A stretch of DNA of 64,000 nucleotides from Psammoneis japonica (Eukaryota): assembly GCA_008632985.1 (NCBI GenBank), contig QPGO01000198.1:62001-126000 (forward strand), given 5' to 3'. The notes beneath the pieces were generated by a model. The model made no database searches. It was not told where the DNA came from and saw nothing but the letters and a program-made list of their open reading frames with translations. The position numbers and the translations under genes were made by a program. Shown in pieces: positions 1 to 64,000 of this stretch (position 1 is the first letter of the stretch; each line of letters begins with the position of its first letter).

Positions 1-3000
1 AACAAACAGTTGGGCGCTGGTGCAACCAGAGTCGACGGCCGGGGTGTCGGCATGAACGGTGTCAGTGGCGACAGGCTCGTTGCGGCGGTGCACGTTAAGG
101 GCGGGGTTGGGTGATTTGTAGGCCTTGCGAAGGTGTGTGCCGGCGGGCATGCGGGCGTGCTGCGTGGTGCAGTCAAAAGTGCGACGGACCGCATCGGCAG
201 GTAGGAAGCCAAAGCAAGGCCGAAGAGACTCGAAGGGGGGGTCCTTGGGCTGTACAGTGCGCTCCGGAGGTGGAACGTCATCGCCCTTGGGGTCAATCGC
301 ATGCAGATGACACTCGTAGAACACGTCATCGTTCGGAATGAGGTGATCATCGAGGGCGGACGCGTGATCGGCAGACAAGGAAGCGGACAAGATGGTCTCG
401 TTGACAACGACACGGTGACGGCAGTTGCCGCATTCGTCAAATGGGTTGGCAGTGGGATCGTCCTGCAGGTCAGAGATTGCGTCGTGCCACTGGTCGTCGT
501 CAGTGACAGAGTGATCGAGGACGGAAGGGTCCCATGTGTCATCACCGGTGAGGATGACATGGGGCAGGGTGTCCCATTCGGCGTCAGTGCAAGGTCGCAT
601 GGCAACATAAGGCAGGCCAGCCTTGATGTCAATGGGGATGACATAGCCATCAGGAGTGGCAATGCGTTGCAAGCCGTTGGGCACCTTGACAGAGCGATCG
701 TTGACATCCTGTTTGTGCCATTTGAGCTGGCCACAGGAATGGATGGTCTTGCCCTTTCCCGTGCATGCATGCTGATGGAGGATGGCGATGACGGGACCAC
801 GCTGGGTCTCAATGACGGCACCAGCGGTGACAATGGGGATGTCCACCAATTGATGATCGTCAATGCCCTGAACGTCGACTTGGCGAGAGGTGCGTGCAAT
901 GACGCGAACGTCGTCGCCAGCAATGCCGCCGTTGGCCCCACGATCGACTAGAGCGCCAGTGCGTGTGGAGCGATGAGCAGAGGCAGAGCAAATGACATTG
1001 TGGTTGTTGACGCGGCGGCAAGTGCGGCCGTCAAGTTCCATGTCATCTGCAGAAGCTGGCGGGGTAGAGGAAGCGGCGGATGGCCCCGGTCGACTGGCAT
1101 TGGGGGCTTGGTTAGGGGACAACAGACGTTGCAGATCACCGGGTGGCAGTGGCTTGCGCTTGGTGAGGTGCGCCAGGATGGGATTGTCCGAAGTGGCGTC
1201 CACATGTGTGGCGGAGTCACCACAGTCAGCAGGAGTCGTGTTGGACAAGTTGACATCTCCGTCACTCCCAAGGTGTTGGTCGTGAAGGTTGGCCGTAACA
1301 GACTCATGGCAGTCACTGGCTCGCGGGTTGCGGGGAGGCGGACGACAGTGCTCAAGGATGATCGCCTTGGAGGAATCGGGCAACGAATCCCAGAGCCGTT
1401 GGTGGTCGGGAGGGAGACGTCTCCATTGGACACCGGTGAGGCTGGGACCGCGGGTGTGGGCAGCATTGGCTTGAAGGACGTCAACGTCGCTGTCAATGTC
1501 ACAGAACACATCGTCGGACGGTTCCTCGGAGCAGACGTCATGTGCGCACATGGCGCGTCGGGGAGCTCGAGGTGTCGTCTTGGGTTGAAACGTGCTGTCG
1601 TACTGAGCTGCCGCGGAGAGGAGCAAGCCACAGCATTGATCGTATGTGAGGCTCTTGCCACTCTGCGTACGATGCTGATCAGCTTGGTTCTTGACAGCAC
1701 GGAGTTCCTCGACAGGGTGCACGGCATTCTCGAGCATGACGCGCTTCTGTCCTTCAGAGAAGTGGTCACTGGCGGGGATGAGTGCCTCGCACTTGCGCAA
1801 CTGATCTTGCCAATGAAGGATGAACCCGTGGGTCGGACCTTTCCAAGTGCCATCACCAAGACGTGCGGTGGTGAGGTACGTGAGCAGGGTGGAGGACTCG
1901 ACAGATGCACGGGTGGAGGCAAGCGCGCACTCAGACAAGGAGCGGCAGACGGTCTGTGCGTCAGAAGACCCCACATTTTCGCGAATGAGAGCCTTGCCCT
2001 TGTCGGTGAGAAGGATGCGTTCGAAGACGGCGAACATGCACTTTTGCTGTTCAGCAAAGAGCAGTTTGTCTTCGGGGCTGGTCGGTTTGTACGACGAGTC
2101 TAGAGTGCACTCGACGTCTTGGGCACGGGCTTGTGCCACAAGTGAGGTGTGCCAAGTGTGCCACTGCTTGTCGGATTTGAGAGCCGTGAAAGCGGTGGGA
2201 TCACGCTTGATGCCTCGCTTGAAGTCTCGCACCGGGTCGCGTGCCTTGGTCGGGTTGGCGACATGTGGAGGTGCAAGGGGTGAGCTGCCGATGGACACAG
2301 AGGACATGCAGTCCGGGCTGAGGCGGCAGGCAAGGAACTCGTCATGCGTGAACAAAGAGGAGTCGTTGGACGCGTTCCAGGTCTAGGTGGGACCTCGTGC
2401 TGCTGAACTGTGACATCGACAGTTTTTTGAGTCTCGTCGTATGTCGCGCACGTAGATTTCTACGTGATTTTTTCGATGTTTTGTGTCATTTTACGGCACA
2501 CTTGTTGAGCGATCCGTCCAACAACTTTTGACATTTTTTGTTACAGCGCGATTCTACAATGTCTTAAGAATCGCGTAGGGCAGGCGAAGTTGCAAAAACG
2601 TCGAGTGGTGAGAGGCATAATTGCACCACAAACTTGGCCGTTTATTTGATGTTGAAGATGAGTGTGTCCATTGGTTAAATTCTCGTACTGCGGAGCTCGC
2701 ACGTAGAATTCTACGGGCCCAATGTCACAAGGAGTCCCACCCAGGGCTGGAACGCGTCATTGGCAACGTCAAGACCTTTGTGTGCTTTAACAATGTACAG
2801 GCCAACTAGTGCTGCTAACATGTTCTTGCAACCACGGGGCAAAGGGATTGCACTGGTGCCGTTGTCGCACTCAAGCGAGTCGATTTGGGGCGGTGTGAAC
2901 GTGAACAGTTCCTGATGCGAGTCCGTGCCGTCTTGGGCCAAAGCCAAACGAAGAGGACTCCCAGCACCTTGGGCAAGCACAGTTCCAACAACGTGCTCGA

Positions 3001-3034
3001 AACCATCGGTTTGTTGCTGACGAGTGAGAACCAT
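1..3034 (-). pseudogene. gag-pol polyprotein of the copia element, interrupted by a MITE and carrying Tyr->Cys/His substitutions
   Basis: ATG at 3034 (MVLTRQQQ...). Removing 2369-2758 plus one TSD copy rejoins ...GLDVAN|DSSLFTHDEFL... in frame. The frame appears to stay open to the window edge. Confidence 0.88.
2369..2758. mobile_element. Non-autonomous DNA transposon (MITE) inserted in gag
   Basis: Imperfect TIRs: GACGCGTTCCAGgtCTaGGTGGGAC on the left and, as reverse complement of the right end, GACGCGTTCCAGccCTgGGTGGGAC. 4-bp TSD GTTG (2365-2368) / ATTG (2759-2762). Excision restores the gag frame. Confidence 0.88.
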
Positions 3035-3506
3035 GGCAGACAAAAGTGGTGTCAGGACAATCAATTCTGGTTGGGAAGCGAAGGTAGACTCGAAACTTGG
3101 GTGAGAACAGACTTGACTTGAAACAGACTTGACTTGAAAATCTTGAACTATCTTAAAATCAGAAGTCGCCGGGCTTTGTTGTCCCGTTCGTTGTCAAGTG
3201 CTAAACTTCCTGTCCGGTCCGTAGAGTTGTGCCGGCACGTCCGAACCCGCAGCCAGCGGCGCTTTGGGTTGCTTGCGAGCGGAGCAGCGGGTTGTAAACC
3301 CCTGCAGGTGAGCTGACTGGAGGTGGACAAGACCCCCGAACCGTTCTCATTTTGTGTCGGTTGGATTTCCCGATCAGGCTGGCCAGTTGACGCAGGCATT
3401 GGGCGCTGTGGACGAACGAACAAACGCGGGAAAGCACCCTCGCCCCAACGCAGGCTGCAATCACGGCTGCTTGCTCTCACAGTCGTCCTCGTGGACCTGG
3501 CAGAAC

Positions 3507-4148
3507 TGTAGAGCACCAGCAGTCCGGGGCAGATCAAGTGCAATGGACTCGGTGTGCTTGTAGAGTGGCAGCAAAACCGCAGTCCGAAGAGTGGGCACAG
3601 GTTCTTGGCCGTGAAGACATGCACACATGTGTGTGTCTTCAGCGACTAAGATCCTTGAATGTGTGGGGTTCTTGACCGTCAACCGAGGAACAGGTGTGTC
3701 AAGGGATGTTGATCAAGGATGGACTTGGATGTGACCGTTGAATGCATGTCTTCAGCGATCAAAGGTGGCACAATCAATCCAGATGTCCAGCGGTGAGGAG
3801 ACTTGACGGTGACGTTAACTTCCTGCCGATGCCCTGGTGTTGAATGCGCGTAGACTTGCCGATGTATGTAGAACACACACGGAGGTCCACGTAGAATTGA
3901 AATAGCGTCGTTGGTAAATCAACGACGACGATGGCGGTTGCTCAATGGGTTGACAATGAGCAAGACTGTCAATCTGACAGAAATTGAAGGCAAATGGCAA
4001 GAATTCAAACAATGACTCCTTGCTGCTGTCTAAATGGCAGATGAGTCTCCGCTCAGAGACCGTCACAGGAGCCGAAAGACGTGTAAGTCGGTATAATCGG
4101 GCTACTGTTATTATTCTTGTGAGCCTTGTGGCTCGAAAGCAAACTACA
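3507..4148 (-). repeat. Putative 5' LTR of the copia element
   Basis: Bounded by TGTAG...CTACA inverted termini and located upstream of the gag 5' UTR, which has CAAGTC repeats at 3105-3135. The second LTR is outside the window and no canonical PBS was recognised. Confidence 0.6.
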
Positions 4149-4940
4149 TCGCGCGTGAACGCGCGGAACTAAAGCACACAAAACTGTGCGCGGTAAACTA
4201 AACAGCGCGCGATGCTTCGCGCGCATCCAAATCCTGTTCAAATCCTGTCATCTGCCTTTCGAGAATTTGCAGAGATTTTTGTCATCAATTGTCCTCATTG
4301 ATGCATTTTTTTACATTGTCCATTTCCAATTCGCGAGAACACCTGCACACACAAAATGCGAGTTACAAGGCAAAACAGCAATGAATGAGAGCTTGTGGGC
4401 CCACATGCTTCGAATCGATGCGAGTGTGCACTGTGGACTTGCCACGCTGCTGCCGTTGCAAGAGATGAGATGGCTGAGTGATTGACTTGCTGCACACAGC
4501 TGTGCATGCACTGCCATGCATTCTTCCCACTCTCATTCCAATGCACACCAGTGCAGCATTTGTCAATGGCAGGAAAGTGGCCATGACACTGGGAAAAATC
4601 ACTGTGAACATGCAGGTGCACAGGCACCACCCAGTGCACTGCCCATGTGGTGGGCATGTCATGCATCTCCATCTTCATCTTCAATGCTGTCAAGAAATTG
4701 TGGTCCAAAATGCAATGGCCGAGGCAGGAGTTGCCTGCTTGGCCTTGTGGCCATTCACCACATTGATGCTGTGCCTTGCTTTGGCGGATGTCAGCAAATC
4801 CGTTTGCGAACAAACCCATGAAGAAATTCAAAGACCTTGCCAGCAACAAGCACGCAACAATGGGATTGGCCTCAATCCCCAAATCCAGTGCACACTCATG
4901 TGCATCATTCCATTGAAGAAATCCTGGAATCGACCCACCA

Positions 4941-5470
4941 CAGCACAATCCAAATCACACCCACATGTGGGCACATTGTCAGTCAAGTTGCAGTTGGCTC
5001 CATGCTTGGTCAGATGAATCACAGTCATGGCAAAGAGAATCCACAAGGTCCTGGCCACAAAACAAGCAACAGTCAAACAGCTTCACATGAAGCACATTGC
5101 AATGGACAACATGAAGCATTCATCAACCCATGAATTGGAAATTGTGACTTCCAAAAGAAAGGGAAAAACAACCAACAAGTGCTCAAAGGCAATCACAACA
5201 ATGACAAACCACTTGACCACATGAAAGCCTTGTTTGTGACCCCACACCATCTGCCAGACATGCACGGCAATGGGGGTTGTTGTTTGTGCCAATCCCATCT
5301 GCATCTCCATGACAATCCAGAGCCGATCCACAAAAATCAATGTCAACCAATCTTTGTTCCACCAAACAATGCACTGAATCTGTGGTGATTGTGTGTCAAA
5401 CTTGACCACATCTCCACAATGATCCATGGCTGCTGCAGAACAAACCTCTTTGTTCCACCAAAACAAAGCA
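4941..5470 (+). repeat. Dispersed repeat, copy 1 (copy 2 is split between 7373-7778 and 9584-9745)
   Basis: GCACAATCCAAATCACACCCACATG...GCATCTCCA matches 7373-7775. GAGCCGATCCACAAAAATCAATGTC...AACCTCTTTGTTC matches 9590-9730. Confidence 0.9.
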
Positions 5471-7372
5471 GCAAAGGCAAAAATCACTCTGCAAAATTTC
5501 TGCAGATGTGACAAACAGAAATTGCCGTGCCAATCTTTCGAAAATTGTTGTCGCTTTTCCATTGTTGTCGATCCTTTTCAAGAAGCACAATGTGCTGCAT
5601 CTCAGCACGACATTGCTGCATCTCATTGCAACTTTGCGACTCTCAATCTCAGTGTTGTGGCTCTGCTCTTTGTCAAAATGGGCATGGGTGCAAAGGAGCA
5701 CCCTCGCCATCTTCCCAAAAGTTGAACATGTTTCAACAGAACACGCCAACTTGCTGGAATGGGTTTGCGAATCATGCCCACAACAGGAAGAAGCAATGTT
5801 TAGATGCACATGTTGTCTGTTCAATGAGAGTGAAGAAATGCGAAAGAACGTGCCAACTCGAGTGGGGACACAAATGTGTCCACAGTGCGTGAGGGGACCG
5901 AGCCACAAGAAGGGTCACGATTCCACGTGCCACAGGAATCCGAATGTTTCCAATTGCCATCCACCAGATGAACTGACTGTTTGGGTTCTGAAAGAAGTGA
6001 AGCCCAATTTCCTTCTGGCACTGCCAAATGAGTGCAAAAACAATTTGTTCAGGAGGGGTCTGTTGGAGAATGCATTTCTTGCTGCTCAAGACGGCGGCGG
6101 ACTGCTGGGTTGCTCGGTTCTAGACGGCTTGTGGGAAAGCATCCCCGCTGTGGATCCATTGCATTGCTTGGCTTCCACACCAAATGATGGTTTGCAAACA
6201 CCGCCTTTGCTGGACCCAAATCTCTCACTCGTCAGCCCAACCAATGCGAAGGCGCACGCTTGACCGACAATGTTGGAGTTGCTGATCCGCTGGATTTTGA
6301 ACATTTTGGTCCAGACTTTGAGTCAACAGTGGAAGACATTTTGTGTGAAAAAACTCTGAAGCAAGGAACAACTCTCCACGAACTCCCATCATTGCCCTTC
6401 CACCCAACAACAGCTGCAACATCGATTCCATGCTCGGCTCTCGCGTGTCAACCGGTCTCCATTGGAGCACCAGAATTTGCCCCCCCTGCTTCTCTGACAC
6501 CAATGTCCACTGCTTGTCAACCCAAGAGACAAAAAAACAAGAGAGCAAGAGTGCTGCTGTGAGGGAAGAAAACATCGCGTGGAAAATGGTCTCTGTGGGC
6601 ACGTCGCTCACACGTTGTGGTGCACGAGAGAAAAGCAGGGTTTTCTTGTTTTGCACCAGATCTTGTTGTTCTTGCTGGCATGTGTGTGTTGGCATGAATT
6701 CACCACACTGCCACAGCATGCCATTTGTTTCATAACAAGCCATTTGGAATTGGCAACCAATGGTGCTGCAAATGTGCCACATGCTCTCGTAGCATGCATG
6801 GATTTCACCCATCCGAAACATCAAACACAACAACAACAGCGCCAGCGACGAGCAAGCGAGAGTGACGCAAAAGCAAAAGCAAAGCACGCACACCAAGATC
6901 CCACAATGTGGAGATGTTGAGTGGCCAAATGTTGCTGAGGTGGAATGATCAGAAAGTTGAAGTTTTTGTCAAGTGTTGATGCATCACAATGGGGGATTGC
7001 TGAGTCACAATTCACTCAAGACATGATGTGATTGGCTGAAAATGCAGCGTGCAAGAATGGGACAACCTGGCTCCCAACTGGGAGGTTTGCAGCAGCAGTG
7101 CTCTGTGGAAGAGGGAAAGAGAAGACTTCCCACGACCGGGTCACAACACACCGTGCAATTTTTTGGTTCCTGGCACAAAAACAAGAAATTCCACGCAGAA
7201 TTTGTGTGGCCACCATGGCAAATTTGTGTCGAGTCCACCGTCATTGTCACTGTTCTTCACAAGGTGAGTCACTTGGGATGTTGTCGGCATTTGTCCACTT
7301 TGAGCTTGTGTGAATTATGTTCAAAAAGGATTGTCGATTTGTGCATCACCTGGGGCTGGAACAAGTCTGCCT

Positions 7373-9745
7373 TGGCACAATCCAAATCACACCCACATGC
7401 GGGCACATTGTCAATCAAGTTGCAGTTGGCTCCATGCTTGGTCAGATGAATGATGGTGGCAAAGAGAATCCACAAGGTCCCAGCCACAAAACAAGCAACA
7501 GTCAAACAGTTTTGCATGAAGCACACTGAAATGGACAGATTGTCAAGCTTGACAACACAAAGCATTCAATGATGCTCATCGTGTTGATCGACCCATGAGT
7601 TGGAAATTGTGGCTTCCAAACAAAAGGGAAAAACAACCAACAAGTGCTCAAAGGCAATCACAACAATGGCAAACCACTTGATCACATGAAAGTCTTGTTC
7701 ATGACTCCACACCATCTGACAGACACACGCGGCAATGGGGGTTGTCATTCATGCCAGCCCCACCCGCATCTCCACAATTGGATGCTTTGCTGGACGGCTG
7801 TGTCTTGTCATCTGTGTGAACATGGAGTTGAAATGGAAATTCTTGTGGAGAAGGACACCCACAACATTCTTGGGCTTTGCCACTTGTCTGCACACAAAGA
7901 CTTTGAGCCAATGACACGTCACCAACAATTGGGTTGTTTCGTTGAACTTCAGAGGAAACTGCCAATTTGAGGACAATCCAGTGTGGAGTGAGAGATTTTT
8001 TCTCACTTTTGAACAACAACTTGAGGGCCAGCTCTGCAGATGATTTGAAGGAAATTGACAACAAGAAGTGCGTGATTGCATCTGGGCCTGGTGGTGGCGA
8101 TGCTGGACCAAAGGAAAGCAACCCATGCTGTTGCCACCAATCTTGACAGGAAGGCTGTCAATGGTGGCACTTTCAAGAAGGTGCTGGAGGGAACACAGCC
8201 AAAGCCTCTTGCACATCCATCCACAACCCTCGCCATTCTTGTGGTCCATGCCAGCAACCTCAAGTGGAAAAAACGGAGCATGAGCCATGAGCACACGCAA
8301 GTTTTCCAGATGATCTGTCAAAGAACATTTTGTTTGCAGCTTGTCAAGATGCTCAAGGCATGTGGACCCACTTCTCAAGCTTGCATTGCCACACATGGCC
8401 ACACCCTCTGTGGCACCAATGAGCCTCAGCAAGGAAGTGGACAAAAAAAGGGAGGCCAGCCAGCAGCCAGCTGGCCGCTGTCAGCTTTTTTGATGGAGTT
8501 GGGCAAAAAAGGTGCTTCTTTGGAAGATTTGGAATTGTTGTGAGGATTGACAGTTGTTGGGTGAGGCCAGCCTCCTGTGTTTTGCAAGTTGAGCCCGCTG
8601 TCCAGAGGCATGAGAAAAAGGCAGGGGGGTCTGCCATTTTGCATGGCCCAACAAGGGAGAGAGACATGATGTGTTGTCAAATTTTGTGCCCCTTCTTTGG
8701 GGGCATGTTGACAATCAAACTCCAAAAATCAGCCAGGGCATGCAGACAACCCAGTTCCCAGTTTTGTACAACAATGCAACAACTGCACACAAGCTCTGGG
8801 TGGGACAATTGAGAGCCTGGTTGTCAACAAACTTTGACTGCAGAGAGACAATTGCTGGGTTTGTGTGGTTCTGTCCAGAGTGACAACAAGAAAGGAACTT
8901 TGTCTTTGGGAAGAAGCTTGATGGCAGGAACATGAAGGGCATGTCATTGGCATTGAATGATTTCCTTGGTTGTTTCAGGCTCACAAAAAGAGGGCTTTAA
9001 GAAGGCTCTCAGGCTCCTGCACTGAAAATTGCCATGCAAGGCACATTGCAGCCAAATGTTGAAATCATTGGACACTGATTTTTAAAATGATGTGGCAACA
9101 ATCATGGCTTGCATCATGTGGTTGTCCTTTTTAGGCACAGAAACAAGGGGGGTGAGTTGTTTGCGCCGATTCCTGGTCTGAAAGCAATCGTTCGCCACAA
9201 AGCACAAAATCCAAAAATCCATCTTTTAACCATCTCACAATGGAGAAGAAGTGGCATCTTGTTCAAAGACAAAGGTGAGCAATTGAAAAACAAAAGCAAT
9301 CGGCATTTGAAACATTCATGACTGATGACCTCAAAATGGAAAAAAACAGCCAATCGATTGGCCAGGAGTCAATGGCATCCCAACCCAAAAATGACTCAGG
9401 CAATTCAAAATTTGATGCATTGCACATCAACTCACGCAGTTGTTTTCATGAAGTTCCGAAGCCTTTGAAAGTCATTGGATTCTGTTTCGTGTGCAAAGAC
9501 CACATGCAACAAACCCCAACTTTGTCTTGCCCGTCTGTCTCCGGTCCAGCTGGGGTCAGGGCAGGGGGGGGAGACACAGATGGACAATCAGGAGCCGATC
9601 CACAAAAATCAATGTCGAGCGATCTTTGTTCCACCAAACAGTGCACTGAACCTGTGGTGATTGTGTGTCAAACTTGACTGCATGTCCACAATGATCCATG
9701 GCCACTCTGCAGAATGAACCTCTTTGTTCTGCCAAAACAAAACAG
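7373..9745 (+). repeat. Dispersed repeat, copy 2, interrupted by a ~1.8 kb insertion (about 7779-9583)
   Basis: Homology to 4941-5470 stops at about 7775 and resumes at about 9584. ACAAT is present at both junctions. Confidence 0.75.
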
Positions 9746-10701
9746 CAGCCAGTGTGATTCAAGCTGCGGCCAAGGCAAAAAATTGCTCCTCCCCAGTTGA
9801 TTTGCCCAACAAAACCCAAGAGTGCCAATGTCTTGCTGATGATCAATCGGACACAAGTCAGGACATCAAACAATGACTCTGGGAAGAAATTTCCCAAAGA
9901 GATGGTGAACTGCCGGTCAAGGATGTCAAGAAAGCTCCAGGAGACCGTGAAGCTGTCATGGCTGCAACTGATGCCATGCAGGAGGAGTGGCAACTTGTGG
10001 TCAGTGATGGTGTGGTTTGTCAACTCGAGTGACATGTGCTGTGCACTTCTGCATTTTCAAGGTCTCTGTTGCTGTGGGGTCGCATGACAGTTGGCTGAAG
10101 TGAACATCATGTTGCGCATTGTTCGCAAGGAAGTCCTTTCACCAAACTGGGAGTGTTTGGCACTGCAGTTTGTGCGGCATGACAGTTGGGGATGCCAATG
10201 TCAGCTTCAACGTTGTGGCTGCTGTGCGCTTTGTTCTTCTCTTTGCTGCTCCAAAATTGCAGCAACATGTTGCGGTGGGCCAGAATTGCGTGTTTGTGCA
10301 TTCCAGCAAAAAATCCTGGCCACCTCCTAAAACCTCAATCGACCCCTTTCTAGAGCTTTTTGCTTCCTCCCTGACCCACAGCAATGGCAAACTGTGCTTC
10401 ATCTTCACCATCCTCAACTGTGATCCTTCTCTTTCTGCATTCCCCGCTGACGTCATCGTCATCAGGCACATTTCTGTCTGTTCCCTGCACAGTGCGTTTG
10501 ATGTTTTCCTGTCAACAGATGCCATGGTGGAAGTTGGGCAAGCTGCATGATCAGCCTTGACTGCCATGTCAGGAGAGTCATTGTGAGTGTCACAACGACT
10601 GGCCATGTTGGTGCTGGGCTGCTGCTTGGAGAAAGGTTTTGTGTCATGTGCCTGGCACAATTGACAACACGTCTTGCTTGACACCCGCGAAATCAACTCC
10701 T

Positions 10702-13058
10702 TCACCGGTTGGCACAGGGCTCATGTGCCAGCTTTCTCTTTCTGCTGACATTCACAGCAAATGTGCCAACAGTGACGATGACAATCAGCAACAAAGTTTT
10801 GTTTTTGGCTTTGAAAGCCTCGCCTCCTGTCACTTTCAAGAAGGCAGGCTCCTTGTTGTTCTCCCAGCAGACAACACTCACACCATCTTTGTTGTGAGGA
10901 GGCCCAAAGCACTCTTCACTGATCTTTGCCACAGACTGCCTCAACAGATGTTTTCTTTAAGAAAGGACACAAACACCATGCTGCATTTGACCCTGTGATT
11001 GATGCGCTTGAAGACATCCTTCAGAAGTGAGGCATCAACACCACTCCTGCAGTTCTTGCACTCAACAACCAAGAATGGACTGTTGGTGGTTGTGGGGCTG
11101 TGTTTGTTGCACATCCTGCTGTTGACCATTTTGTTGTCTGCATGCCGGTCAAGGAAGCCAATGGACACGTTGGGCAGGTCGGCAAGCTCTGTTGGAAGGC
11201 CAGAATTTGAGCCACCGAGCGCAGGCACGTCAGGCCAAATGAACTTGAGCTCATTGAAGAATGAAGGAGCAGTGGGTGCTTTCTCAAAGAATTCTTCCAA
11301 TGGGAAGGCGCGAACCAAAGGCAGGAACTCCTTCAGTGACATGCCACCCAAACAAAGGGAATCATTTTTTTGTAGACCTTCATCAATGCCAAGGTCAAGG
11401 CCACATGAGCTGGAGCCTCCAGCAAGTTCCCATCACTCTTGGTTGCATGCTCGATTTCTGTGAATGGCTTGCTGTTGAAGAGATCTTGGCATCTCATGCA
11501 TGCTCCCCTCACGGTCAACGGTTTGCACGGCTTCTTGAGTCCATCGATCAGTGGGAAAAGGGGTTTGGCGTTTTCTTCCAGCATTGCCTTGGTCCATGTC
11601 ACCAGAGCCAGGCAAAGCAACGGCTCCGTCCTTGCACAAACGGGTGCTGCCTCGAGCTGCTTCCCACAGTTTGAAGCCTTGACACACTTGTGGCTTGCTC
11701 TCCCATCATCACCGCCCTGCACAAGCCAGCCAAAATGATGACCAACAAGCTTGTGAGCAGAAGCAAACCAATCTCCTTTGATTTCGACGTCCATTTCAAA
11801 CAGTTGCGCCAGTTGCAAATCTGAGCTTTCCGTCCAAGCATGGCTCTTGCACTGCTGCAACGCACATCAGATGACACCCACACATTCCAGCAGGCTGCCA
11901 TCTCCCTTGATGATTTTTGCCTTGGCCTTTGCCAGAGTCCAGGGTCGCTCCGCATCCCTCCAAAACAATGGTGGTCTGTCCAGCCCTGGAAATGGTGAGC
12001 ATTTTGGAAGCGCAGACATGATCCAAGTCCACACATCAATTGACTTCCGGGATGCTGCTCCAATGCAGTCTTGTGCTCCTGTGTGGGTGCTCATCAAGAT
12101 TGGAGCAATTCCAAGGCATTGAAGGGTGTCCCTCAAACAAAGAGCACACTTGAAGCGGCCATTGTTGCCCATGGGTGGGACTTCGTTGAGAAAAACCAGG
12201 AACTTCTTGCCTTGTGTGGCAGCTTTGAGATCTCTGAGCTTCAACACACTTCACGTCATCCCATCGAAAAGGCTTCCCAGTGAGCAGGTGATGGAGCAAG
12301 CGGACACAGGCAGAATGGCCCTTGTCCTGCTTTTTGGCCCATTGGGTGATCCCGTTTGCTGATGGGGTCATTGCTTTGCGGCCAATCATTTCAATGAACT
12401 TGGCAATTGTTTCCATCAATGGCTTCGAATCGTGAGGATGGCAGAAGCTTTGATCGCTGTCCTGGCCCATGTTCAAGCAGATTGTTTTCGCCCCTTCGAA
12501 GGTGAGACTTTCAGTCGCCGCCAACTGAGTTTTCCCAGTTCCTGACGAGGCAATGATGCAGATGCAGCAGTTCGGCCATTCAACATCAACTTCCTCTTGC
12601 ATTTCTGGAAACTCAGCTTCAATTTCCGCTTCCTCTGGTGCAACCTCTTGTTGGCCCAAGAGAAAATTAAGAAGATCTTGGGTGCCTTCAGATCCACCGC
12701 TCTCAATTGCCCCTTGAATGCAGTCATCCAGGCCATGCCATTTCAGTGGCGACTGGGGAAGGAGGGCATTGCAGCAGCAGCCAGATTTTTCTAGCCCATC
12801 GAGCAACTCAAAGTTGTTCAATTCAGCCTCAACACCCAGTGCCAATGCAAAACAATCCTCCTTCATGGCCTTGCTCAATGTTCGGTGCAAATGATCTTCC
12901 TCTTCCATCAGTCTTTCCAAAGCCATCAGAGGCACCGCCCTTGGTGCCTCTTTCACGGCAAGGATTGTTTCTTCGTTGTTGAACTGGAGAGATGACCCCA
13001 CCCAAGACACCATGGCACTGCGACGCTGCCGCCGCTGCCGCTGCTCTTTGTCACTCAT
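10702..13058 (-). pseudogene. Crinkler-like P-loop NTPase + restriction-endonuclease-fold pseudogene
   Basis: Walker A IIASSGTGKT, Walker B-like FLVFLNEVP, ILMSTHTGA and C-terminal FLVVECKN. Several frameshifts, and Tyr is essentially absent. Confidence 0.65.
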
Positions 13059-14586: not shown

Positions 14587-14712
14587 TGATTTCTTTCATG
14601 ATTTCTGGTGATTTCTTGCATTTTCTCTTGATTTCTTGTGCTTCTTGCAATTTCTCATGCTTCTTGGAATTTCTTGTGCAATTTCTCTGGATTTCTTGTA
14701 ATTTCTCATGCT
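14587..14712 (-). repeat. Degenerate tandem repeat (ATTTCTY-rich; coiled-coil-like EKLQE on the minus strand)
   Basis: Repeated gatttcttg / caatttctc units about 10-11 bp apart. Confidence 0.6.
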
Positions 14713-45779: not shown

Positions 45780-46174
45780 AGGCCGTGAAAGGGGCAAACT
45801 GTAACAGATGCATATCTTTTCAGGGTGGAAGCGGATGTAGTCATAACATCTAGCAAGAATACCTAGAATGATTCATCTAACGTAGACGCTTTTCTACCGT
45901 TTCATCAGTAATTGCAGAAGATAATGTTTTATCATCAAGTCTTAATATGGACAGATGGAAATCGCTTTCCTTACCCAGGAAAATTATTCTAGCAAGTCCC
46001 TTGCCCTTTGTGCTTTTATTCTGTCCACGACGATTCTACTGGAAGATGGATGGACCAGACGATTCCGTCACACAGTTTGTTGGATTGTCACTTTTCCGGC
46101 GCGCAACGGCTAGAGAGTCTTCGAAGAGTGGCACGAATTCCTGAGCACAAGTGGAAACAGCATCCATAAAACGC

Positions 46175-48995
46175 CATGGCCACCAAAACCAACAGCACCA
46201 AATGCAAAGGTGCACCGTCCTCCTGCAAGAAGATGGCCACACAAAGCGAGACGACTTCTCCAAAAAAAAATTCGAAGCAACAAGGCATCCAAAACAAGCT
46301 CTTTGACAACATGGGAAAAGATGCCAGCACCCGATGGATGGAAAGCACCACAGGAAACGTGGTGGTGGAGATGGAACACTGGACAACTCTGAGATGACTG
46401 AGAACACAGTCAAGGCTGGGAACCCAAAAGTCACTCAAGCCCCTTTTGAAGATTGGGGGTTGGCATTTCATTTGCCTTTTCTCCTCCGATGAAGCAGTGC
46501 CACAACAAAAGTTCTCAAGAGCGAACCAGACAAGGATGATGACACCTTTCTGATTGACAGTTTTGCATCAGCTGACAGAGAGCTCATCAATCATCACAGC
46601 CAGAAGAACAACAAGAAAGCCCTCATCAAGGTGGTTGACATGGCAAAAGCCAGCAATTGGAAAAAGCATGCTTTCCTTCTTTGGCCCACTTTCAGCCATC
46701 CTTCTGGTCCATTGGCCTTGTCCTTGGACTCCTCCATGCTTCAAGTGGCAAGCAAGCAGCAAGTCAGACAAAGCCAAAGAGGGCATGTTTGAGGAGGGTG
46801 GGATGCCAAAAAGAGGCCCCATCTGCTCTGTTTGAAGCAAAAATCTTGGATGCTGAAGCAGGCAAGAACAAAAAACTTTTGCAGCTGTGAACCCAGCCCG
46901 CAAGGCCAAGAAACCGGCATCAACAAAAAACAGCAATTTTTTAGAGAAACACAAAGTGTGTGTGCCACAATTTGTTCCTCACAGGGCCAGCAAAAACAAT
47001 GACTGGATTGCCAAGAACAAACTTGCAGGCACAAAAAGGGCAAACTCCATTAAGAAAAAATGCAGCTGCTTTGGCCCAAACAAAACATGAGCACAGAGGT
47101 CAATGTGGGTGGCTGGAGCTGCAGAGAGGCTGCCATGTGGGAAAAAATGATGACAAAGAAAAGCAAAAGCCAAAGTGCACAAAGACGTCAGCAAAAAAGA
47201 AACAAAGCCAAACAAACTGACCATCAGCAACAAAAAAAAGAGAAAGAGTTGAGGAAGGGGAAAATGGGTGGTGCACACATGAAGATTGCACCACCAGTTG
47301 CAGCACTGTCACAATGTGTCACTTGCATCTTTCCCTTCTCTAGTTGATGCAGGGCTTCTCCCATGTTTGAACAGCTGTGTTGGCTCAAGTTGGTGCAATG
47401 GACTTTTGCCTTGTCTCATGTTGGGTTCTCCTTTCTCAACTGGCTGTCCACAGCATGACAGCCAATGACTCCTGTTTGCTGGCAGAGGCTTTTTTGCTGA
47501 CAGCTTCTCACAAAACTTGCACTTTGTTTGGCAAAATGCAAGTGCACCTGCCATCAAACACAACACACATGTGAGGGCAAGGAGCAAGAAGTGGCAAGAG
47601 CTGCAACATGAGCCCAGCACACGTGTGCACTCTTGGCCACCACTCTTCTGCTGTCAACTCCCAGCATGACTCATCAAATCAGGCCACAGTTTGGGGGTTG
47701 CAAAGAGAGTTGTCTTCTTTTTCTGCACACAAAGCAGTGCGCCAGATTGTCCGGCCTTTTCTTTGGACAATTTGGGCTGCCACTTCCAGCACACAAGAAG
47801 AAAAAGTTGGGGTTTGGGACACATCCCATCCAAGAAAAAATTGTCACACTGTGTCAACAATCAACAACTCTGAGTTTCAAAATTGCCAGAGAGGATGGGT
47901 GGCTCACCAAACTTGGTGACATCAAATGATTTTGTGGGTCATGACACTTTGCCACAACTCAAAGCACCAATTGAAGACCTGTCGTTCCACACCACATCTC
48001 CCAGCAATGCCAAGCTCCTTTCTTGTTGGTGGCTTGTGCCTCTCCAGCTGCCAACCCCAGTTGCCGCCATCCTCCTCCCACAGAGATGAATTTGAAGGTT
48101 TGCACAATCACATTCTCTTGACATTTGAAACACAATTGAGGCAAACCCTTCTCCAGTTCTGGGCAGGGTTCAAGCCAGGGTTGCAAATGTGCAAAAGGCA
48201 CCCCATGCCCCAATTTTCTTTTAGACCAACTCATTGTTGCCAAGGAAATGGTGGCTTCAAGGAGAGGGAGAGGCATGTTTGAAAGAGCAAGCTGTGTTTG
48301 TTCCAATGTGCCCAGTCTGACAACTCTGTTTGCTGTTGCTGGCTGTCTCCTGCAGAGGATCCAAGTGACATTGCCTCATCCCGCCAGCATGCCCCAAGCT
48401 CTCAGCTGCAACTCAAACATGCTTTTCAGCGCTGCGCTGGGCACAACAAGAGCTGTGCCACATCTGTGGCTCTTTCACAGTTGCTTTGTGGGCACCATTT
48501 GTTTCTTTCTGCTCACTTGAAAGATTTAAGATGAAGATGTTGTCAGCAAAGTTGCTGCGCACACTGCACACCCAATGGGCGGGAAGGCTGAAATGCTGCC
48601 CTTGAGTGTTGCAATGCTGGCCTGGGTTAAAGCTGGCACCACTCTTTCTTCAATGGCCAGCCAGTGGAATGACCTTTCTCTTGACACCCTGAAAGAAAAG
48701 GAGGAACTGCTCCATGGGTGCATTTGAGGTGGACAGCACAGCTGGCCTTGTCCACAAAAGCTTCAGCTGGCATGGGTTCAAAGATCTGCTGCTTCTGTGA
48801 GACAAGTCTTTCTCTGCAGATGCCTCTCAGATTGCAGCATGGCACAATGGGCATTCTGATGCACAATTTGGCATTGAGGTTCTTGTTCATGCCTCATGGA
48901 GCTTTCGTTCGCAGTGTTGCCATTCTGTGAGGAGCACACCAGCACCGTCATGAAGCGAAATGGCAGGATCTTCGCCAATGTCTCGGTCATCTGAA
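46175..48995. other. TpA/CpG-depleted block; two convergent coding relics of unknown identity
   Basis: TA is nearly absent and the survivors are mostly TTAG, TTAA and CTAG. Normal composition on both sides. Confidence 0.9.
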
Positions 48996-49563
48996 TGCCA
49001 TGTATTGTAGTTTTGTCGACTAATGACTCTCTACTCTAGCTAGAATAGAGTTGAACTTGTATGTCGGAGGAACAACTGGAACACTCATTGCACATTATTA
49101 TCTTCCCTGCAACTCTACCGTACACATTATTCAGGAAGCCCATGCTACTCTACTTAAAAAACAAAAAGGAGATACCAAAGCAGCAACACGCAATAAACCC
49201 TAAAGACGAATTGTGTCGTACGAATGAACGACATGCAGCCGCATGTCCAACACGTATGATTGGAGTAAGATGTCGACCCATCTCCTTGCTTTATTGCGCC
49301 ACACGAGAAGAGAGCGAGTCTTGCTCTTTAGCAGTCGAAGAGAAGCTGGAAGTTGTCTATGGGTTGTGGTTCTCCTACATAATTTAAAGTTTTCCTATTC
49401 TAACCTAGTCGTAGCATCCATCTTGCATGTAATATCCTGACCAAGGGCTACTACGTACCCGTGTTACAATGCTAAACGATGCAATCACCACAAGAGATTA
49501 CAAAAACAAGTCTTTCTTTGAATTGTTTGATACATTCAGTAAGCAAAGCTTGAATAGCACCTG

Positions 49564-50748: not shown

Positions 50749-50981
50749 GTTGATGAGTTTCTGGACAATCACTTTTAGTAGATCGATCAATCATGCCAGT
50801 TAGTTCTCTACACTAAGAGGGGAGAGGGTGAATTTGCAGCTTTCGGCTTTCGTTTGCAGAGATGCGATTTTGTGAGAGTCTTGCAGAGTCAGGGCGCATG
50901 CTAAGTAAAAGTTAACGGTCATGACTGAGAGTTCCAGTCTTGGCTTTCGCGACTGAAAGGAGCAACAGCTCAAATTTGCGT

Positions 50982-51741
50982 CCCCATTTGCTCAAACTTG
51001 GCAAGTTTGAGCAAAATGCTCAAACTTCCGAGATTGCTCAAACTTGCGCAAGATTGAGCAATTGGTCAAAAACATGTGCCAGCTTGGTGCAACAGAGCCC
51101 TGTGTGAAAAAAATCCACCATGTTGGCACACGGCCGAGGACGTTGCATCATTGCGCTCTGATGACATGAAGACAGTGTCGGCACACTGACAATCCATTTG
51201 CCACATGTTTTTGACTTGGAACAACAAACCTCAATGTTGTGGCACATGTCAATTCCTCAGCACACTTTGAAAAATGTTTTCGATCGAAACAAGAGGCAAA
51301 AATGTTGTGCAACACTTTCTCTTCTTCTTGTTGCACCCCACCCCCCATCAAGCCTGTTCTGCCAGAACTTTCAACATTTTCATGCACAAGTTTGTGCCAC
51401 ATGTTTTTCATTGGATTGCTGGGTTTCTTGAAGGTGTTGTCACAGAGAAACTGCGCTCTTTGTTGGCCGCCAATGGCTGCAAACACCACTTTGTTTCTGA
51501 TGCTTTTGTTTTTTGCACTGACACCCCTGCATGCACCAGTTGACAAAAGCAGCAATTGCAGTGTGCACTGCAAGCACTGTGCAGTGGGGGCCAGCTCTGT
51601 GCAGCTGTTTTGTGCAGGCAGCCTCCACTTTGCACTTGCAGCACATGTTTGAGCAACAATTGCTCAACAAATTTGAGCAGTTGTCCAAACACATTCAGCC
51701 CATTTCTTGCTCAAACACATCATGTGTTTGAGCAAACGGTG
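50982..51741. mobile_element. Putative non-autonomous DNA transposon with TGCTCAAA/TTTGAGCA subterminal repeats, within a TpA-depleted block (about 50940-52300)
   Basis: CcCCaTTTGCTCAAAC on the left and GTTTGAGCAAAcGGtG on the right. Motif clusters at 50987-51062 and 51646-51736. No clear TSD. Confidence 0.6.
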
Positions 51742-52470
51742 CTGGACAAAACATGACTCAAGCGGTGCACCGCAGTGGCTGTGATGGCGGCACATGCTTT
51801 TTCAAATTGTTGTCACACAAAGTCATGCACTTTGAGCAAAATGCCTGCACAGTGCTGCTCTGAGCCACAACTGTGTGCAATGAGATTTTGCAGCTTTGCA
51901 GAAGTTTCTGTGACATCGGATTTGCACCCACTGCCTGAGCTGAATTTCTGTGACACACACCAACTTAGATCAACTGCAAAAATCACAGAGCTCTTTCCAG
52001 CTGCTGCCTGGGACAAGCTCAGTCACATGCCTGGGTGCCCTTTCAATCCACAACCATGGATGGGGCCAAAGTTCCTCACCTGTTCACAAAACAGGGGCGC
52101 ACCTCAACATGGTGGTTGAAGTTGTGGTGGGTGGTGGATGACGCTGCGCTGCTGAAGTTCTTGTCCTCAACCAGCTCCAGCGAAAGTGGGTGTTTGTTTT
52201 GCCACCCGCCCGGCCACTTTAAGCTGGTGAAATTTGACATCAGCATCATTTGTCTGTGCCGACTCCCCGCCGCTGGCCAAGTGATTGAGCCATCGCACAA
52301 AAGATGAGTCGTCGTCGGTCGTCGCTTTTTTTTGTCAACCTCGTGCGCACGCACGCACGCACGAGTTTTGCGTGACTGGTCTGTCCTCCCGCCCTCGTGA
52401 CTCACACAACATCATCCTCGCGTCACAACATCATCATCATCATCGCAATCATCGCATCGACAGCTCATTC

Positions 52471-52687
52471 TGGGGGAAGGTCTCCCAGCCAGCTGCTGGC
52501 TGAAGAATTTTGTGTAGAAATTGAACTGAAAGAGTCTGTCAATCTGTGCGTTAGGGGGTTTTGGTGAACGCTGGACAGACTCGTCTTCTTTTGCGTACGT
52601 AAAAATTGTACTTGCAACTTGCAAAACCCCCAAACGCACTGACGATCAGACTTTTTTCAGCCAGCAGCTGGCTGGAGTCTTCCCCCA
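52471..52687. mobile_element. MITE with ~30 bp TIRs and 4-bp TSD
   Basis: TGGGGGAAG..TCC(C)AGCCAGCTGCTGGCTGAA ... TTCAGCCAGCAGCTGGCTGGAGTCTTCCCCCA, with ATTC on both flanks (52467-52470, 52688-52691). Confidence 0.88.
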
Positions 52688-59952: not shown

Positions 59953-60274
59953 GCAAAGATGGATCCAAAATAAAGTACAGTGGGCGCTGCATTTGTGAAT
60001 GCTGGTGTGTCAAGGATAGTGCTCGCAAAAACACGTCGGGACTAAGTACTTCCCATGGATTCGTGCAGCTCTCGTGCCAGGCCAAATCAAATCACCTTTA
60101 AAAAGAAAATTAGGGGGTTTGTACCTGTCCTTTTAGTAATTTACGACTAACTTAGCTAAATATTTTTTCCGGAGCACGCTGTCCTCTCTTCTTTGTACTT
60201 CAATCGCTTTGCTTCTGAGTTCCCGTGGTAAGGAAGGTGAAAAACTTAATGTATCAACTCTATTTCTTTCTCTT

Positions 60275-62722
60275 TCATAGTTGAACCACTTCGGCACTCT
60301 TGTCACCGAAGAGCTCCCCGGCCTTCTTGTCATCGACAACAACAAGCCAGTCGCGCTTTTTTCTTTTGCTGCCTGACGTGGACTTGTTGCGTCCGCGGCG
60401 ACCATTCCTGAGGTCGCAGAGGCAGCAGAATCCGCGGGCATCTGAACAAGTAGTCGCAGACAAGGTCGATAATCGGAAACGAGTGTGTCCTGTAGTGTCT
60501 TCCATTCGGTGTGAAGTTCTTCCGACAGCTTCTGAGATACTTTTTCCTTCTTTGGCTTTCCCCGGCTCTCATGATAAAGTTTCGATGGAACAAGGGTTCG
60601 AAGCGCATCTTGTTGATTACTCACGGCAGAAACGTACTTGGACTGCACTATACAGGTGCGAAAGTCGCCATAGTCTAGGCGGTTTCGCAACAAGAAGATC
60701 AAATCGGGGCCAATGTTATCATCTGGATAGCAGAAAGGAGCAACTTGACCCTCGAACTTGGAACTGACTGACTTTGCAACCCAATCGATCGTTTTTCTAA
60801 TACTCTCACTGGTGTCAACACAGAGCACGCCATACGCCGACCTCCTTGAAATGTCGTAGGCCTCCAAAGCCGAACCGCCTTCCTCCAAATGTGAATTCAG
60901 GAAATTGTGCAGTCTGTCCTTCTCCATCAACAGACCAGGCAACAGCAACCTCTCAAACCCTTCGCCGAGGCCACCTTCTTCCTGTTTCTTCAAATTTTCT
61001 CGGAGGTGGTGGTCGAGGTCGAAAAAATTGATCCCAGCTTGAACGACGACAGGTTCGTCGAGATGCCCTTTTATGCTGGTCCCTTGTCGATCAGTTTCGC
61101 AAACTGCAGCCACGCCATTTTCGATCAGCGCTTTTGCAGAAGCATCAGCAAACGGATGCGGTTTCTGGCCAACGGCAAAACGGCACACCGCATGCTCTAG
61201 GTCGTCCACTACCCGCCTAAGCAACTGGTTCATGCTCGATTCAGTGCCGGAACATTTGCGATCCACCCTTGCAAAGCAAGCATGCGCCGAAGTTTCGCCG
61301 GCAGTCCATGACTCTCGTCGGTTGTTTTCTTGATCTGCACGCGTCATGACGTTCAAATGTCGATCCAAGGCTTCAATCAGTTTGGCACCCATGTCCTCGA
61401 AACTACCTTGAGTTCTCCACACTTGATTCGAGTGACTTTTGTTCTCCCGTCGACTGGAGTGTGCTTCCAAAAAGCCAGCAGCCCATCTTGGTCGTCCACG
61501 AAGCCAGTTGGCGATGTGCGTCATGACATCATCGCGCACGCCAGATGGATCAAGCATTTGTTTGGCGCAGGCATTCTTTGACCTCTTCTACACTGAGCAA
61601 CCTGAAACCCACGAAGAAGAGGCTTGCACTGTCACCGAGCGATTTTCCCACAATGGACAGCGTCTGTTCGGAAAGTTGGTCCAATGCGAGACCTGTGCCC
61701 GAGAACACTGGAAAGTGCAAATCCTTTCGCATCTTGGACAAACAACCAAATCCCCCCACAATGGCAGAGAAAGCTGACCTGGCCTGCATGCCATTTCTGC
61801 TCAGAAATTTCATCTTGTTGAGCTCCAAGAGTGCTTGTGCTTCGTCAACAAAGATGGACCAAACTTTCTTTGTGGAGGCACAATGATCGAAGCGAACAGC
61901 TCCATTGACGCGGTCTTCATCACACTTCTCCATGGCATCGTAAAATGTGTCCCCGCCAAGCAGTCTTTCTGGAAATGTTTGATGCAGCAACCACTCGCGC
62001 GGAGTCATGTCCCTCTTCAAAATTTTGTTCAGTTCCTCATGGACAACATGCCGGACAAAAAGGAGCACCGACAGTCGCTCTTGAATTGTGGTGCGATTCT
62101 TGTCGTTCGTGCTTCGTGCGGGTGTCATTCGCCTCTGGCAAATCGCAGTCCAAAACATGCAGGAGATCCCGTGAACCTGGGTTTCTGCAAAAGTCGTCCA
62201 CCAAAAAGTAGAACCCCTTCTCACGGCTCAGACATTCAAAGATGGTGCGGGTCTTTCCAGCACCGGATGTGCCACAGAGAAATGTCGGTCCTTCTTCTTG
62301 CGCTCTGCAAATGTGTTGGTGGCCCTCGGGTTGAGAATGGTGCACTGTGTTGTGTCCACTGTTGTCTGCCAGACCCTGCAGAAGAGAAGGCATGGACGCG
62401 ACGTTGACATGAAGCCTTCCTGCTGTCCAAGGGAGTGCCGCAATGGAACATTCTCGCGCTGGGGCTTCCACAGTGACGCCAACAAGGCGTCTCGTTGGGG
62501 CTCAAAAAATTCCAGCTGTGGTCCATTGACACTGATGCTTTCTTCATGCTCCTGGAGGCAGGCTGCCACGAAGACCTTCACCGTGTCCGCAACCTCTTTC
62601 TTCTCCACACCCATCTTAAGATCCTCGTTTGAGCGGTTGGGTGCTGTTGGTTCAGCAGAAGAAAGTGGGTTGCTGTTGCGTTGGAGCAAGTGGCGTTGCT
62701 TTGTCAACGTTCACTGGGTCAT
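60275..62722 (-). pseudogene. Crinkler-like P-loop NTPase + PD-(D/E)xK nuclease gene, disrupted and partly TpA-converted
   Basis: GTSGAGKTRTIFE.L, IFVDEAQ, VFSGTGL, LRGRPRW, LDEPVV, GEGFE and PDDNIGPDLIF...VQSK. Frameshifts and an early TGA. Confidence 0.75.
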
Positions 62723-62949
62723 TCTGTTGTTCTTTCTTGTTTCTTGCTTTCCCCAGGTTTTCCCACTTCTCCAAAATCGAGCAATGCAACATTCAAGCAC
62801 AGACATGTGTCAAAATCGAATCAGCAATCAACTGTGGGCATCCGTTCATCGCGTTTGTGATCGCAATCCCGCCCGAGGGAACCATCGCACGGTCGTTTGT
62901 GCACCACAGTCAAGTGGTGAACGCCACTTTTCAGTGTGATGGGAGGGGT

Positions 62950-64000
62950 GATTTTGCAAAGCATTCGTGATTGCTTCACTGTGGAATTCAGAAGTTTTTT
63001 CAGCATGTTTGCGACTCAGAAGAGACGCAGAATCCCACCGGAGTGGAGGTGATTGAGCACCTTGATCCGGTGGAACAGAATCTGCGGCACCCAACGCTGG
63101 ATGTCATTGGGGACGGGTGCAATCCGGCAGATTTTCTGAGTGAGAACAAGCTTTCAATGTTGGTCAACAACATGGACCACTCATGTGAGGATGCTGAAGT
63201 GCATCTCACGGCGGAGCTAGAACAGAATCAGGAGCTGTTCGATGCCGAGGTGCACCTGGAGCAGCGCTGTTTTGGCAGGTGCTGTCTCTAGAGAGTTGAC
63301 AGCATGCGGTGCTGTGGTGTCTGTGTCATCCCACTGGTGCATCAAATTGGCATTTCATGCCACAGTCGGGCCAAAAGAAGCGATTCAACAGCTCAGTCTA
63401 GAAAGTTTTAGCGGTGGCGCGCGAACAAAAAATGCGTGGAAGCAGTGCCACAATGTGCGGCCCAAAAAGAATGACACGGCATTCCGTTGTGGACAATTGT
63501 TGGTTGCCGGAGGAAGCACAACAGACAGGGGAAACAAGCATGGTGAAGAGACGACGCAAGCAAAGAGACCGACACTGATGCAAGTGCCGGAGAGAGATGC
63601 AAGGACAGCAATCCAACGACATTGCAAGGGCGCAAAAGAGAGAACAGATCCATTTGAGTTAGTGCCATGTCTTCAACAAAAAAAGAACAATGCAAGACAA
63701 CATTGGCATGCACAAAAACTCACACAGAGAAGCACCACACCAGCGCCAGAAAAATGACCACATCTGCGGTGAGATGCAACAGCACAAGGAGGTGAGAACA
63801 CACTTTTCTACCAGCGCAATGCAACAACGAGCAAATGGGCAATGGAAACTCACCAGTGGGAGCAAAACTTGGGCTGTCTGGATTGCCAATGGCGGGCAGG
63901 GAGGAAAGAAGTCTGCTGGTTCCACGGAGCATGATGACAAAAGCACGCAGCAGATTGGCATGAGCTTTGGCAGAAAGTGGGTGCTTGGGCTTGAGTGACT
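62950..64000. other. TpA-depleted block continuing off the right edge; unidentified coding relic on the + strand
   Basis: The few TAs seen are CTAG or TTAG (63217, 63287, 63398, 63408, 63659) plus CTAC near 63808. CpG is partly retained. Confidence 0.8.

Follow-up and report, generated by a model that had tools for sequence, protein, structure and literature searches.

The DNA analysed here, hereafter the window, is a stretch of 64,000 nucleotides from the diatom Psammoneis japonica (contig QPGO01000198.1, positions 62,001 to 126,000 of the forward strand). Judging from its sequence, the region 1-4212 of the window represents one member of a highly abundant Ty1/copia retrotransposon family; most conserved tyrosines of this copy are replaced by cysteine or histidine, and further blocks of the window are nearly devoid of the dinucleotide TpA. 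The element lies on the minus strand. Positions 1..2355 hold a copia polyprotein fragment, open over 785 codons from gag to the start of integrase; it is truncated by the window start and contains 17 TpA, including 8 Tyr codons. The first 90 codons of the polyprotein are found further upstream (2764..3034, minus strand, ATG at 3034-3032), where tblastn matched the N-termini of relatives weakly, and are preceded by the 5′ untranslated region and the 5′ long terminal repeat (LTR) at 3035..4212 (minus strand). Only the 5′ side of the element is in the window, with the untranslated region and the LTR treated as one interval. Contigs of four read runs (one sample, one study; 12,328 contigs) were placed on positions 1-20000. 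Near 4212 many of them diverge, which marks the element's outer end; 4225-5012 is spanned by a contig whose depth is ordinary (57). The contigs pile up on 1-4669, with a summed depth of 69,000-160,000 against ~48-60 per contig beyond; summed contig depth does not equal copy number, but the family is nonetheless clearly very abundant. No other copy of it was found in the window by tblastn with six relatives.

The nature of the fragment was deduced from its homologues. A search limited to longer proteins yielded 103 full-length relatives of 1404-2702 aa, the best of them at 51-54% identity over 100% of the query, with E-values from 1.5e-238. The RVT_2-type reverse transcriptase family PF07727 is present in 102 of these 103 relatives aligning end to end with the fragment, and was confirmed in P0002, P0003 and P0039 at residues ~1340-1600. 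By tblastn, full-length relatives cover 2379..1 at 37-51% identity, the fragment corresponding to residues ~88-930 of relatives of 1789-1933 aa. Pfam named no family, gag, protease and integrase included, in the fragment or in the N-terminal piece; it is on account of the homology to PF07727-bearing proteins that we read the fragment as the portion of a Ty1/copia polyprotein that extends from gag to integrase and precedes the reverse transcriptase. In this respect it resembles the CoDi (Copia of Diatoms) elements: it has a Ty1/copia polyprotein, and its relatives with RVT_2 come from diatoms and marine metagenomes.

An earlier reading of these letters (hereafter the original prediction) described the gag-pol frame as apparently open. 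This holds for the 785 codons of 1-2355, but a secondary insertion of 394 bp at 2370..2763, resembling a miniature inverted-repeat transposable element (MITE), separates them from the polyprotein start and cuts off its ATG. It carries 25-nt terminal inverted repeats, whose arms at 2369-2393 and 2734-2758 are 88% complementary, and is flanked by an 8-bp duplication (GTCGTTGG / GTCATTGG). In contigs of other copies it is absent, 2369 being joined straight to the sequence that starts at 2764, and by arithmetic the deletion of the 394 bases preserves the polyprotein frame. The insertion is still rich in TpA, with an observed over expected ratio (o/e) of 0.56. A related MITE-like copy lies at ~14700-15100 and differs from 2370-2763 at several places by TA versus TG/CA; it coincides with the only TpA-bearing island (14699-15007) of a 13-kb block described below.

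The central claim of the original prediction was that tyrosines at conserved sites had turned into cysteine or histidine while CpG was intact, and a count of substitutions at Tyr versus other codons had been proposed as a check. We aligned the fragment with 95 of the 103 relatives, excluding eight low-coverage hits (P0093, P0098-P0104). Among columns with a consensus of at least 50%, Tyr was changed in 15 of 22 (to Cys in 10, His in 3 and Phe in 2), and other residues in 76 of 376 (Fisher p=3.8e-6). The imbalance was also found at a consensus of at least 70% (10/14 against 21/235) and of at least 90% (4/5 against 5/120). The claim is thus upheld: 13 of the 22 conserved Tyr columns are now Cys or His, and Tyr survives in 7. 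The Cys codons lie at 2038-2040, 1945-1947, 1789-1791, 1633-1635, 1546-1548, 1501-1503, 1018-1020, 988-990, 589-591 and 421-423, the His codons at 769-771, 157-159 and 52-54, all on the minus strand. The clearest case is codon 1633..1635 (residue 241), a TGC in a column that is Tyr in 95/95 relatives, i.e. a TAC to TGC change by A>G after T. Codon 988..990 (TGC, residue 456) falls in a column that is 99% Tyr in the relatives, codon 769..771 (CAT, residue 529) in one that is 93% Tyr, and codon 52..54 (CAT, in the motif ATDTVH) in one that is 77% Tyr. Both expected routes, TAY to TGY and TAY to CAY, are therefore present, as had been claimed. Cys or His at these sites of intact relatives would have refuted the original prediction, but such residues are almost absent from them: across the 22 Tyr columns their Cys count is 0-2 per column (n=95), and the median of Cys plus His among them is 0. 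Outside Tyr, 9% of conserved columns were changed in the window copy, on par with intact relatives.

The motifs on which the claim had been built fared unevenly. KCMFAVF, AQTVC, RKCE and ATDTVH do mark Tyr-majority columns (Tyr in 63, 80, 82 and 73 of the 95 relatives, respectively). SECALAS lies on a mixed column (His 44, Tyr 33); in FLACRLSPDC the first Cys occupies a Phe column (71/95), and the last one a column in which Tyr has a plurality (31). The loss is visible in bulk composition as well. Restricting the comparison to metagenome loci with at least 1500 coding bases (12 shorter loci dropped), the window coding part has 7.2 TpA/kb, against 29-77/kb in 67 of 68 relatives' loci. Per 100 codons, this part has 1.0 Tyr (relatives 2.1-5.2), 3.3 Cys (0.5-2.9) and 4.7 His (1.9-5.3).

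To which step the loss belongs is apparent from dinucleotide ratios. In 1-2355, TpA has an o/e of 0.18 and TG/CA of 1.45; ApT (1.03) and AA/TT (0.94) are not depleted, and CpG stands at 0.91, abundant as the original prediction had said. The 5′ parts of the element are TpA-poor to a lesser degree (o/e 0.27 over 2711-3064, 0.23-0.46 in 3035-4212). Direction was taken from the conserved columns. Among the 91 changed ones, 62 are explicable by one base change: 13 by A>G after T and 3 by T>C before A, i.e. the same step on either strand; 5 by A>G and 4 by T>C in other contexts; and 9 in all by G:C>A:T, of which 7 are at CpG (G>A, CpG>CpA) and 2 elsewhere. The remaining ones are transversions or ambiguous. 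The inferred AT>GC changes are 25 against 9 for GC>AT, and 16 of the 25 are on TpA. The 7 CpG>CpA replacements mean that the CpG complement, though abundant, has undergone some decay.

Other copies of the family give an independent view of the ancestral state. Over 1-20000, copies differ at 628 places, mostly by transitions: each transition type occupies 112-127 places, each transversion type 14-20. We examined the best-supported 40 of the 628, of which 38 are within the element. Among these 38, 24 are of the type TA versus TG/CA, or TG versus CA at a single step, 4 are of the CpG type and 10 are other. The same best 40 include 9 places at which the window copy has TG or CA and other copies retain TA. 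At codon 52-54, where the window has CAT, 88% of other-copy depth carries TGT, the alternative product of an ancestral TAT. The window has His at codons 1456-1458 and 484-486 and most other copies have Cys, with TAC in 16% at 484-486. Conversely, at three Tyr codons kept by the window copy (118-120, 1600-1602, 1642-1644), Cys is found in 61-93% of other-copy depth. Since sister copies carry either TA or the alternative product, TA is ancestral, and copies or sub-lineages have been converted separately, to either product. The original prediction that this element was caught part-way through conversion agrees with these data: of its seven surviving tyrosines, three are Cys in other copies, nine of its TG/CA places are still TA elsewhere, and the protein is conserved outside Tyr.

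Changes private to the window copy were scored as those whose window state is found in under half of the depth, a small sample drawn from the displayed sites only. They include TA>TG at 3212, 3721, 3731 and 3767, and lean 8:1 towards A>G on the window plus strand, which is opposite to the element RNA; the states of other copies lean 8:2 on the opposite strand. A locus-specific strand bias of a process acting in place would be expected to give such an 8:1 lean.

Outside the element, TpA is erased in sharp-edged blocks. The largest extends from 4365 to 17471, with 21 TpA against ~854 expected; over these 13 kb, which are at ordinary depth, TpA o/e is 0.03 and CpG o/e 0.20-0.34. Further blocks lie at 34999-35666 (0 TpA), 35970-38391 (7 TpA against 159 expected), 46168..49002 (6 against 187, CpG o/e 0.17) and 50914..52514 (2 against 103, CpG o/e 0.51), and the core of a TpA-poor zone at the window end occupies 61590..63659 (7 against 123, CpG o/e 0.71). 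All blocks together, roughly 24 kb, contain 43 TpA where base composition predicts 1464, which means that ~97% have been erased. CpG o/e within these blocks is 0.16-0.71. Between blocks, TpA o/e is ~0.4-0.9 and CpG ~1. Gaps between consecutive TpA have a median of 16 bp and a maximum of 336 in ordinary sequence, and reach 1451 bp in the blocks. Contigs built separately from the reads reproduce the erased block, differing from it at 0-23 positions over lengths of 508-1632 bases. TG versus CA skew along the window was uninformative, being roughly symmetric in the erased blocks.

In every TpA-poor block the o/e of TpA (0.00-0.14) can be set against that of CpG (0.04-0.76), and not one 500-bp bin of the window combines low CpG with normal TpA. 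Because TpA is the more fully lost in every block and no reverse bin exists, the ordering of TpA loss before CpG decay is supported. The same ordering is seen in the element (0.18 against 0.91), so that the original suggestion of a TpA loss separate from, and faster than, CpG decay is sustained.

What the blocks contain was searched for in several ways. At curated score, Pfam recognised no family in 180 open frames (46 + 134) of the other TpA-poor blocks; weak hits in block frames were limited to Tfb2 and AAA_22 (E ~0.003-0.007). No LTRs or terminal inverted repeats were found around four smaller blocks, and internal repeats in the erased blocks are few. Erased DNA, for example 4000-6000, shows long overlapping open frames on both strands, without a Pfam family. 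Such frames are false, as TAA and TAG are gone, and gene callers would over-predict there.

One border can be located exactly, since it cuts through a gene. At 60263..62710 on the minus strand lies a broken member of a diatom gene family of the P-loop type (~800 aa, not named by Pfam), and the edge of the TpA-poor zone at 61-64 kb passes through it. Relatives of this gene have a GTSGAGKT-type P-loop; in the window copy this stretch is unreadable and is followed by a stop. Beyond 61000, Tyr is kept at 1 of 11 conserved columns (His 4, Cys 3, Arg 1, Val 1, Phe 1), against 6 of 6 at or below 61000 (Fisher p=5.7e-4). A border within a transcription unit argues for a process that acts along a segment of chromosome rather than on entire transcripts.

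Which TpA escaped may depend on the neighbouring bases. In saturated blocks, 40 of the 55 survivors are YTAR (TTAA, CTAA/TTAG, CTAG), against 198 of 1330 TpA in ordinary sequence (p=1.6e-20), and RTAY (ATAT, ATAC, GTAC) is nearly gone (1/55 against 410/1330). Within the partly converted element, few TpA precede a T (13/126 strand-sites against a 27% background), and more than in the background precede CG (15% against 6%, p ~1e-3). The window copy's own changes show no preference for a following pyrimidine: a hand count placed 5 in the favoured context and 5 in the disfavoured one. As private changes lack this preference and the effect rests on survivors, we take it as a tentative lead.

Metagenome loci encoding relatives place the window copy in a wider frame. 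In 80 such loci TpA o/e has a median of 0.68, and it reaches at least 0.44 in 78 of them. The two TpA-poor outliers, L049 and L001, are the closest relatives. L049 (JAAUXU010117778.1) has a single TpA in 1388 bp (o/e 0.01), reaches up to 60% identity, and carries His, Cys or Phe at many Tyr positions. L001 (JAAUYE010059589.1), the best overall match, is TpA-poor in 751-3516, its first 750 bases being ordinary, and retains 12 of 14 conserved Tyr. Its 2655 coding bases contain 24 TpA, 19 of them Tyr codons and 5 elsewhere; non-Tyr TpA thus amounts to 1.9/kb, against 17-62/kb in the other 67 loci. L001 looks like what would be expected of a lineage still under selection and exposed to the same mutation pressure. 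Of the 95 proteins aligned, P0039 alone shares the pattern of the window copy: in its full-length open frame of 1888 aa, 13 of 46 conserved Tyr are Cys or His.

We conclude that the window has probably been subject to a TpA-directed A-to-G process that acts on integrated DNA in delimited domains, of the kind seen in the chlorarachniophyte Bigelowiella natans. Such a process would convert TpA steps by turning their A into G, on either strand, TA giving TG, or CA when the other strand is hit; in frame, TAY codons (Tyr) would become TGY (Cys) or CAY (His). A frame ruined in this way would stay open, because the process cannot create stops and removes TAA and TAG. The same activity would have erased ~97% of TpA in the other blocks, and would outrun the slower decay of CpG to TpG/CpA. 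By analogy with B. natans, editing would take place on integrated DNA, in delimited chromosomal domains. The data presented above show the direction of change, its TpA context, hits on both strands, the separate conversion of copies, the blocks and a border within a gene. The chemistry may be adenine deamination by an enzyme resembling tRNA adenosine deaminases, and the process may serve in defence.

Several observations weigh against this conclusion. In the window copy, Cys outnumbers His 10 to 3, a lean towards the sense strand, and at several Tyr sites 61-93% of other-copy depth carries Cys. Shared Cys codons may have been inherited during amplification of the family, and would also fit editing at each cycle of retrotransposition; a timing after insertion is a suggestion, with which inheritance and per-cycle editing compete. 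The MITE-like insert, and the 5′ region generally, hold more TpA than the coding part. As the content of the blocks is unrecognised, the proposal that foreign DNA is targeted is limited to the retrotransposon. Finally, the four read sets come from a single sample and study, possibly the same as those of the assembly.

The alternative that survives best, though we judge it unlikely, is that an ADAR- or ADAT-like deaminase preferring U before A edits the RNA or cDNA of the element at each retrotransposition, so that copies are born converted. The sense-strand lean just mentioned would follow, as would the fact that Cys is the majority state of other copies at six listed Tyr sites. The family is very abundant, with 2916 of the 12,328 contigs at least 99% alike, which points to recent amplification, and the intact nearest relative, L001, is TpA-depleted in its coding part only. 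Yet both strands are affected, the changes private to the window copy lean, in the small displayed sample, towards the strand opposite to the element RNA, 13 kb of contiguous DNA at ordinary depth and without a recognisable retroelement gene are 97% erased, and a block border falls within one gene. Moreover, in B. natans the signature arises in silent, single-copy integrated DNA.

It is much less probable that no hypermutation took place, and that an active subfamily evolved Cys and His and avoids TpA by selection, through codon choice or escape from a UA-cutting nuclease. The distribution of TpA in L001, 19 of 24 in Tyr codons, is the pattern of selection filtering a loss of TpA. However, columns that are 93-100% Tyr in relatives are replaced in the window copy, Tyr, Cys or His occupy the same codon among copies of one family, non-coding parts and unrelated blocks are erased too, and the window copy is itself broken by an insertion.

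A sequencing or assembly artefact, in which a modified base in TpA context is mis-called as G in heavily modified repeats, seems highly improbable. The blocks are also CpG-poor, as mis-read modified bases would give, and all read sets are from one sample, with the library type unrecorded; but separately built contigs reproduce the erased block, the same mark occurs in unrelated metagenome assemblies (L049; P0039), and mis-calls would not spare TA in a context-dependent manner. Just as little credit can be given to a general GC-biased change, whether from biased gene conversion or from an AT-to-GC pressure acting uniformly on an element rich in GC (GC 0.59; 0.596 here against ~0.47 in the remaining window), for although 9 of the 25 A>G and T>C changes are outside TpA, the other 16 fall on this rarest of steps, ApT and AA/TT are unaffected, and the saturated blocks are without TpA at an ordinary GC of 0.45-0.51.

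Comparison with known systems helps to define the process. In repeat-induced point mutation (RIP), known from Neurospora and other fungi, dinucleotide-specific transitions ruin repeats in place, in blocks, and can leak to neighbouring sequence; RIP turns CpA into TpA, enriches TpA and creates many stops. The window shares with it the dinucleotide-specific transitions, the blocks and the ruined mobile DNA. It differs in that TpA is converted to CpA or TpG and vanishes, in that no stops are created, and in that a 13-kb block at ordinary depth gives no sign of a dependence on duplication. Fungal-type RIP was rejected on these grounds: a TpA o/e of 0.02-0.18 with a TG/CA o/e of 1.45-1.97 is the opposite of its product, the polarity being given by conserved Tyr and by sister copies.

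ADARs are metazoan enzymes that act on double-stranded RNA, where they edit only some of the A residues and do so in more than one context. The natural target of ADAT/TadA, A34, follows an invariant U33. With both ADAR and ADAT2/3 (TadA-like), as here, A is read as G and U is favoured before the edited A. Unlike ADAR editing, the change is in the DNA sequence, is near complete, and concerns TpA only. RNA hypermutation of the ADAR type was also discarded as a candidate, given ~97% TpA removal over 13 kb, undepleted ApA/ApT and a border inside a gene.

The closest match is B. natans, so far the one organism for which hypermutation confined to TpA has been reported. According to the preprint by Mettrop et al. 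(10.64898/2026.01.13.699255), 230 of 231 mutations found in two integrated viral regions of mutation-accumulation lines were A>G or T>C, all of them in TpA. The rate was ~6e-7 per site per generation, the new mutations arising, in some lines only, at ~1000 times the background rate. The same preprint describes clusters poor in TpA and rich in CpA+TpG, genome-wide and enriched for reverse transcriptase and DDE domains, and proposes an ADAT2-like deaminase (10.64898/2026.01.13.699255). The giant-virus and virophage DNA of B. natans is like the diatom sequence in undergoing A>G and T>C changes at TpA, giving TpG and CpA, in delimited regions. The two cases differ in the host, a stramenopile here, and in the target, which is a very abundant LTR retrotransposon family here and integrated viral DNA there. 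They also differ in extent: the diatom sequence has reached saturation, with a TpA o/e of 0.03 across 13 kb where the viral region of B. natans stands at 0.45. The B. natans process was measured in real time; the diatom one is known from sequence comparison alone. To this kind of process the diatom case adds saturation, a CpG decay that follows, a border inside a gene, neighbour effects with YTAR survivors, and a selection-filtered relative.

Full-text literature searches returned no report of a TpA-directed change in diatoms, their only match being the B. natans preprint. A term search of the founding CoDi paper, Maumus et al. 2009 (PMC2806351), gave no hit for 'dinucleotide', 'RIP', 'point mutation' or 'tyrosine'.

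A bolder reading, which we advance as possible though rather doubtful, is that diatoms run an adenine-directed counterpart of RIP that sweeps TpA from silenced domains faster than methyl-CpG decays, and that retrotransposons answer by shedding silent TpA and keeping Tyr codons, as in L001. If true, it would amount to a mutational arms race fought in dinucleotide content, with a system present in stramenopiles and, with B. natans, in rhizarians. The occurrence of the full signature in a diatom suggests a widespread and unnoticed genome-defence or mutational system in marine algae. A ruined copy on one side and a relative that keeps only Tyr TpA on the other make the arms-race hypothesis directly testable, and a diatom offers tractable material for an enzyme hunt. 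In practical terms, long false open frames abound in erased DNA, broken elements seem intact, and dating of elements by divergence will be wrong.

Three other features of the window deserve mention. An acetyl-CoA synthetase gene lies at 38732-40099, with 59-70% identity to proteins of Nitzschia, Cylindrotheca, Asterionellopsis and others, which identifies the host as a diatom. An open frame at 31956-32786 (minus strand) encodes long tandem repeats rich in Ser, Pro and Thr (DNA repeats 32071-32405), and is naturally free of TpA over 335 bp, which is unrelated to the erasure. Finally, a direct repeat of ~650 bp (40837-41494 and 43367-44017, 79% identity) is located in TpA-normal sequence.

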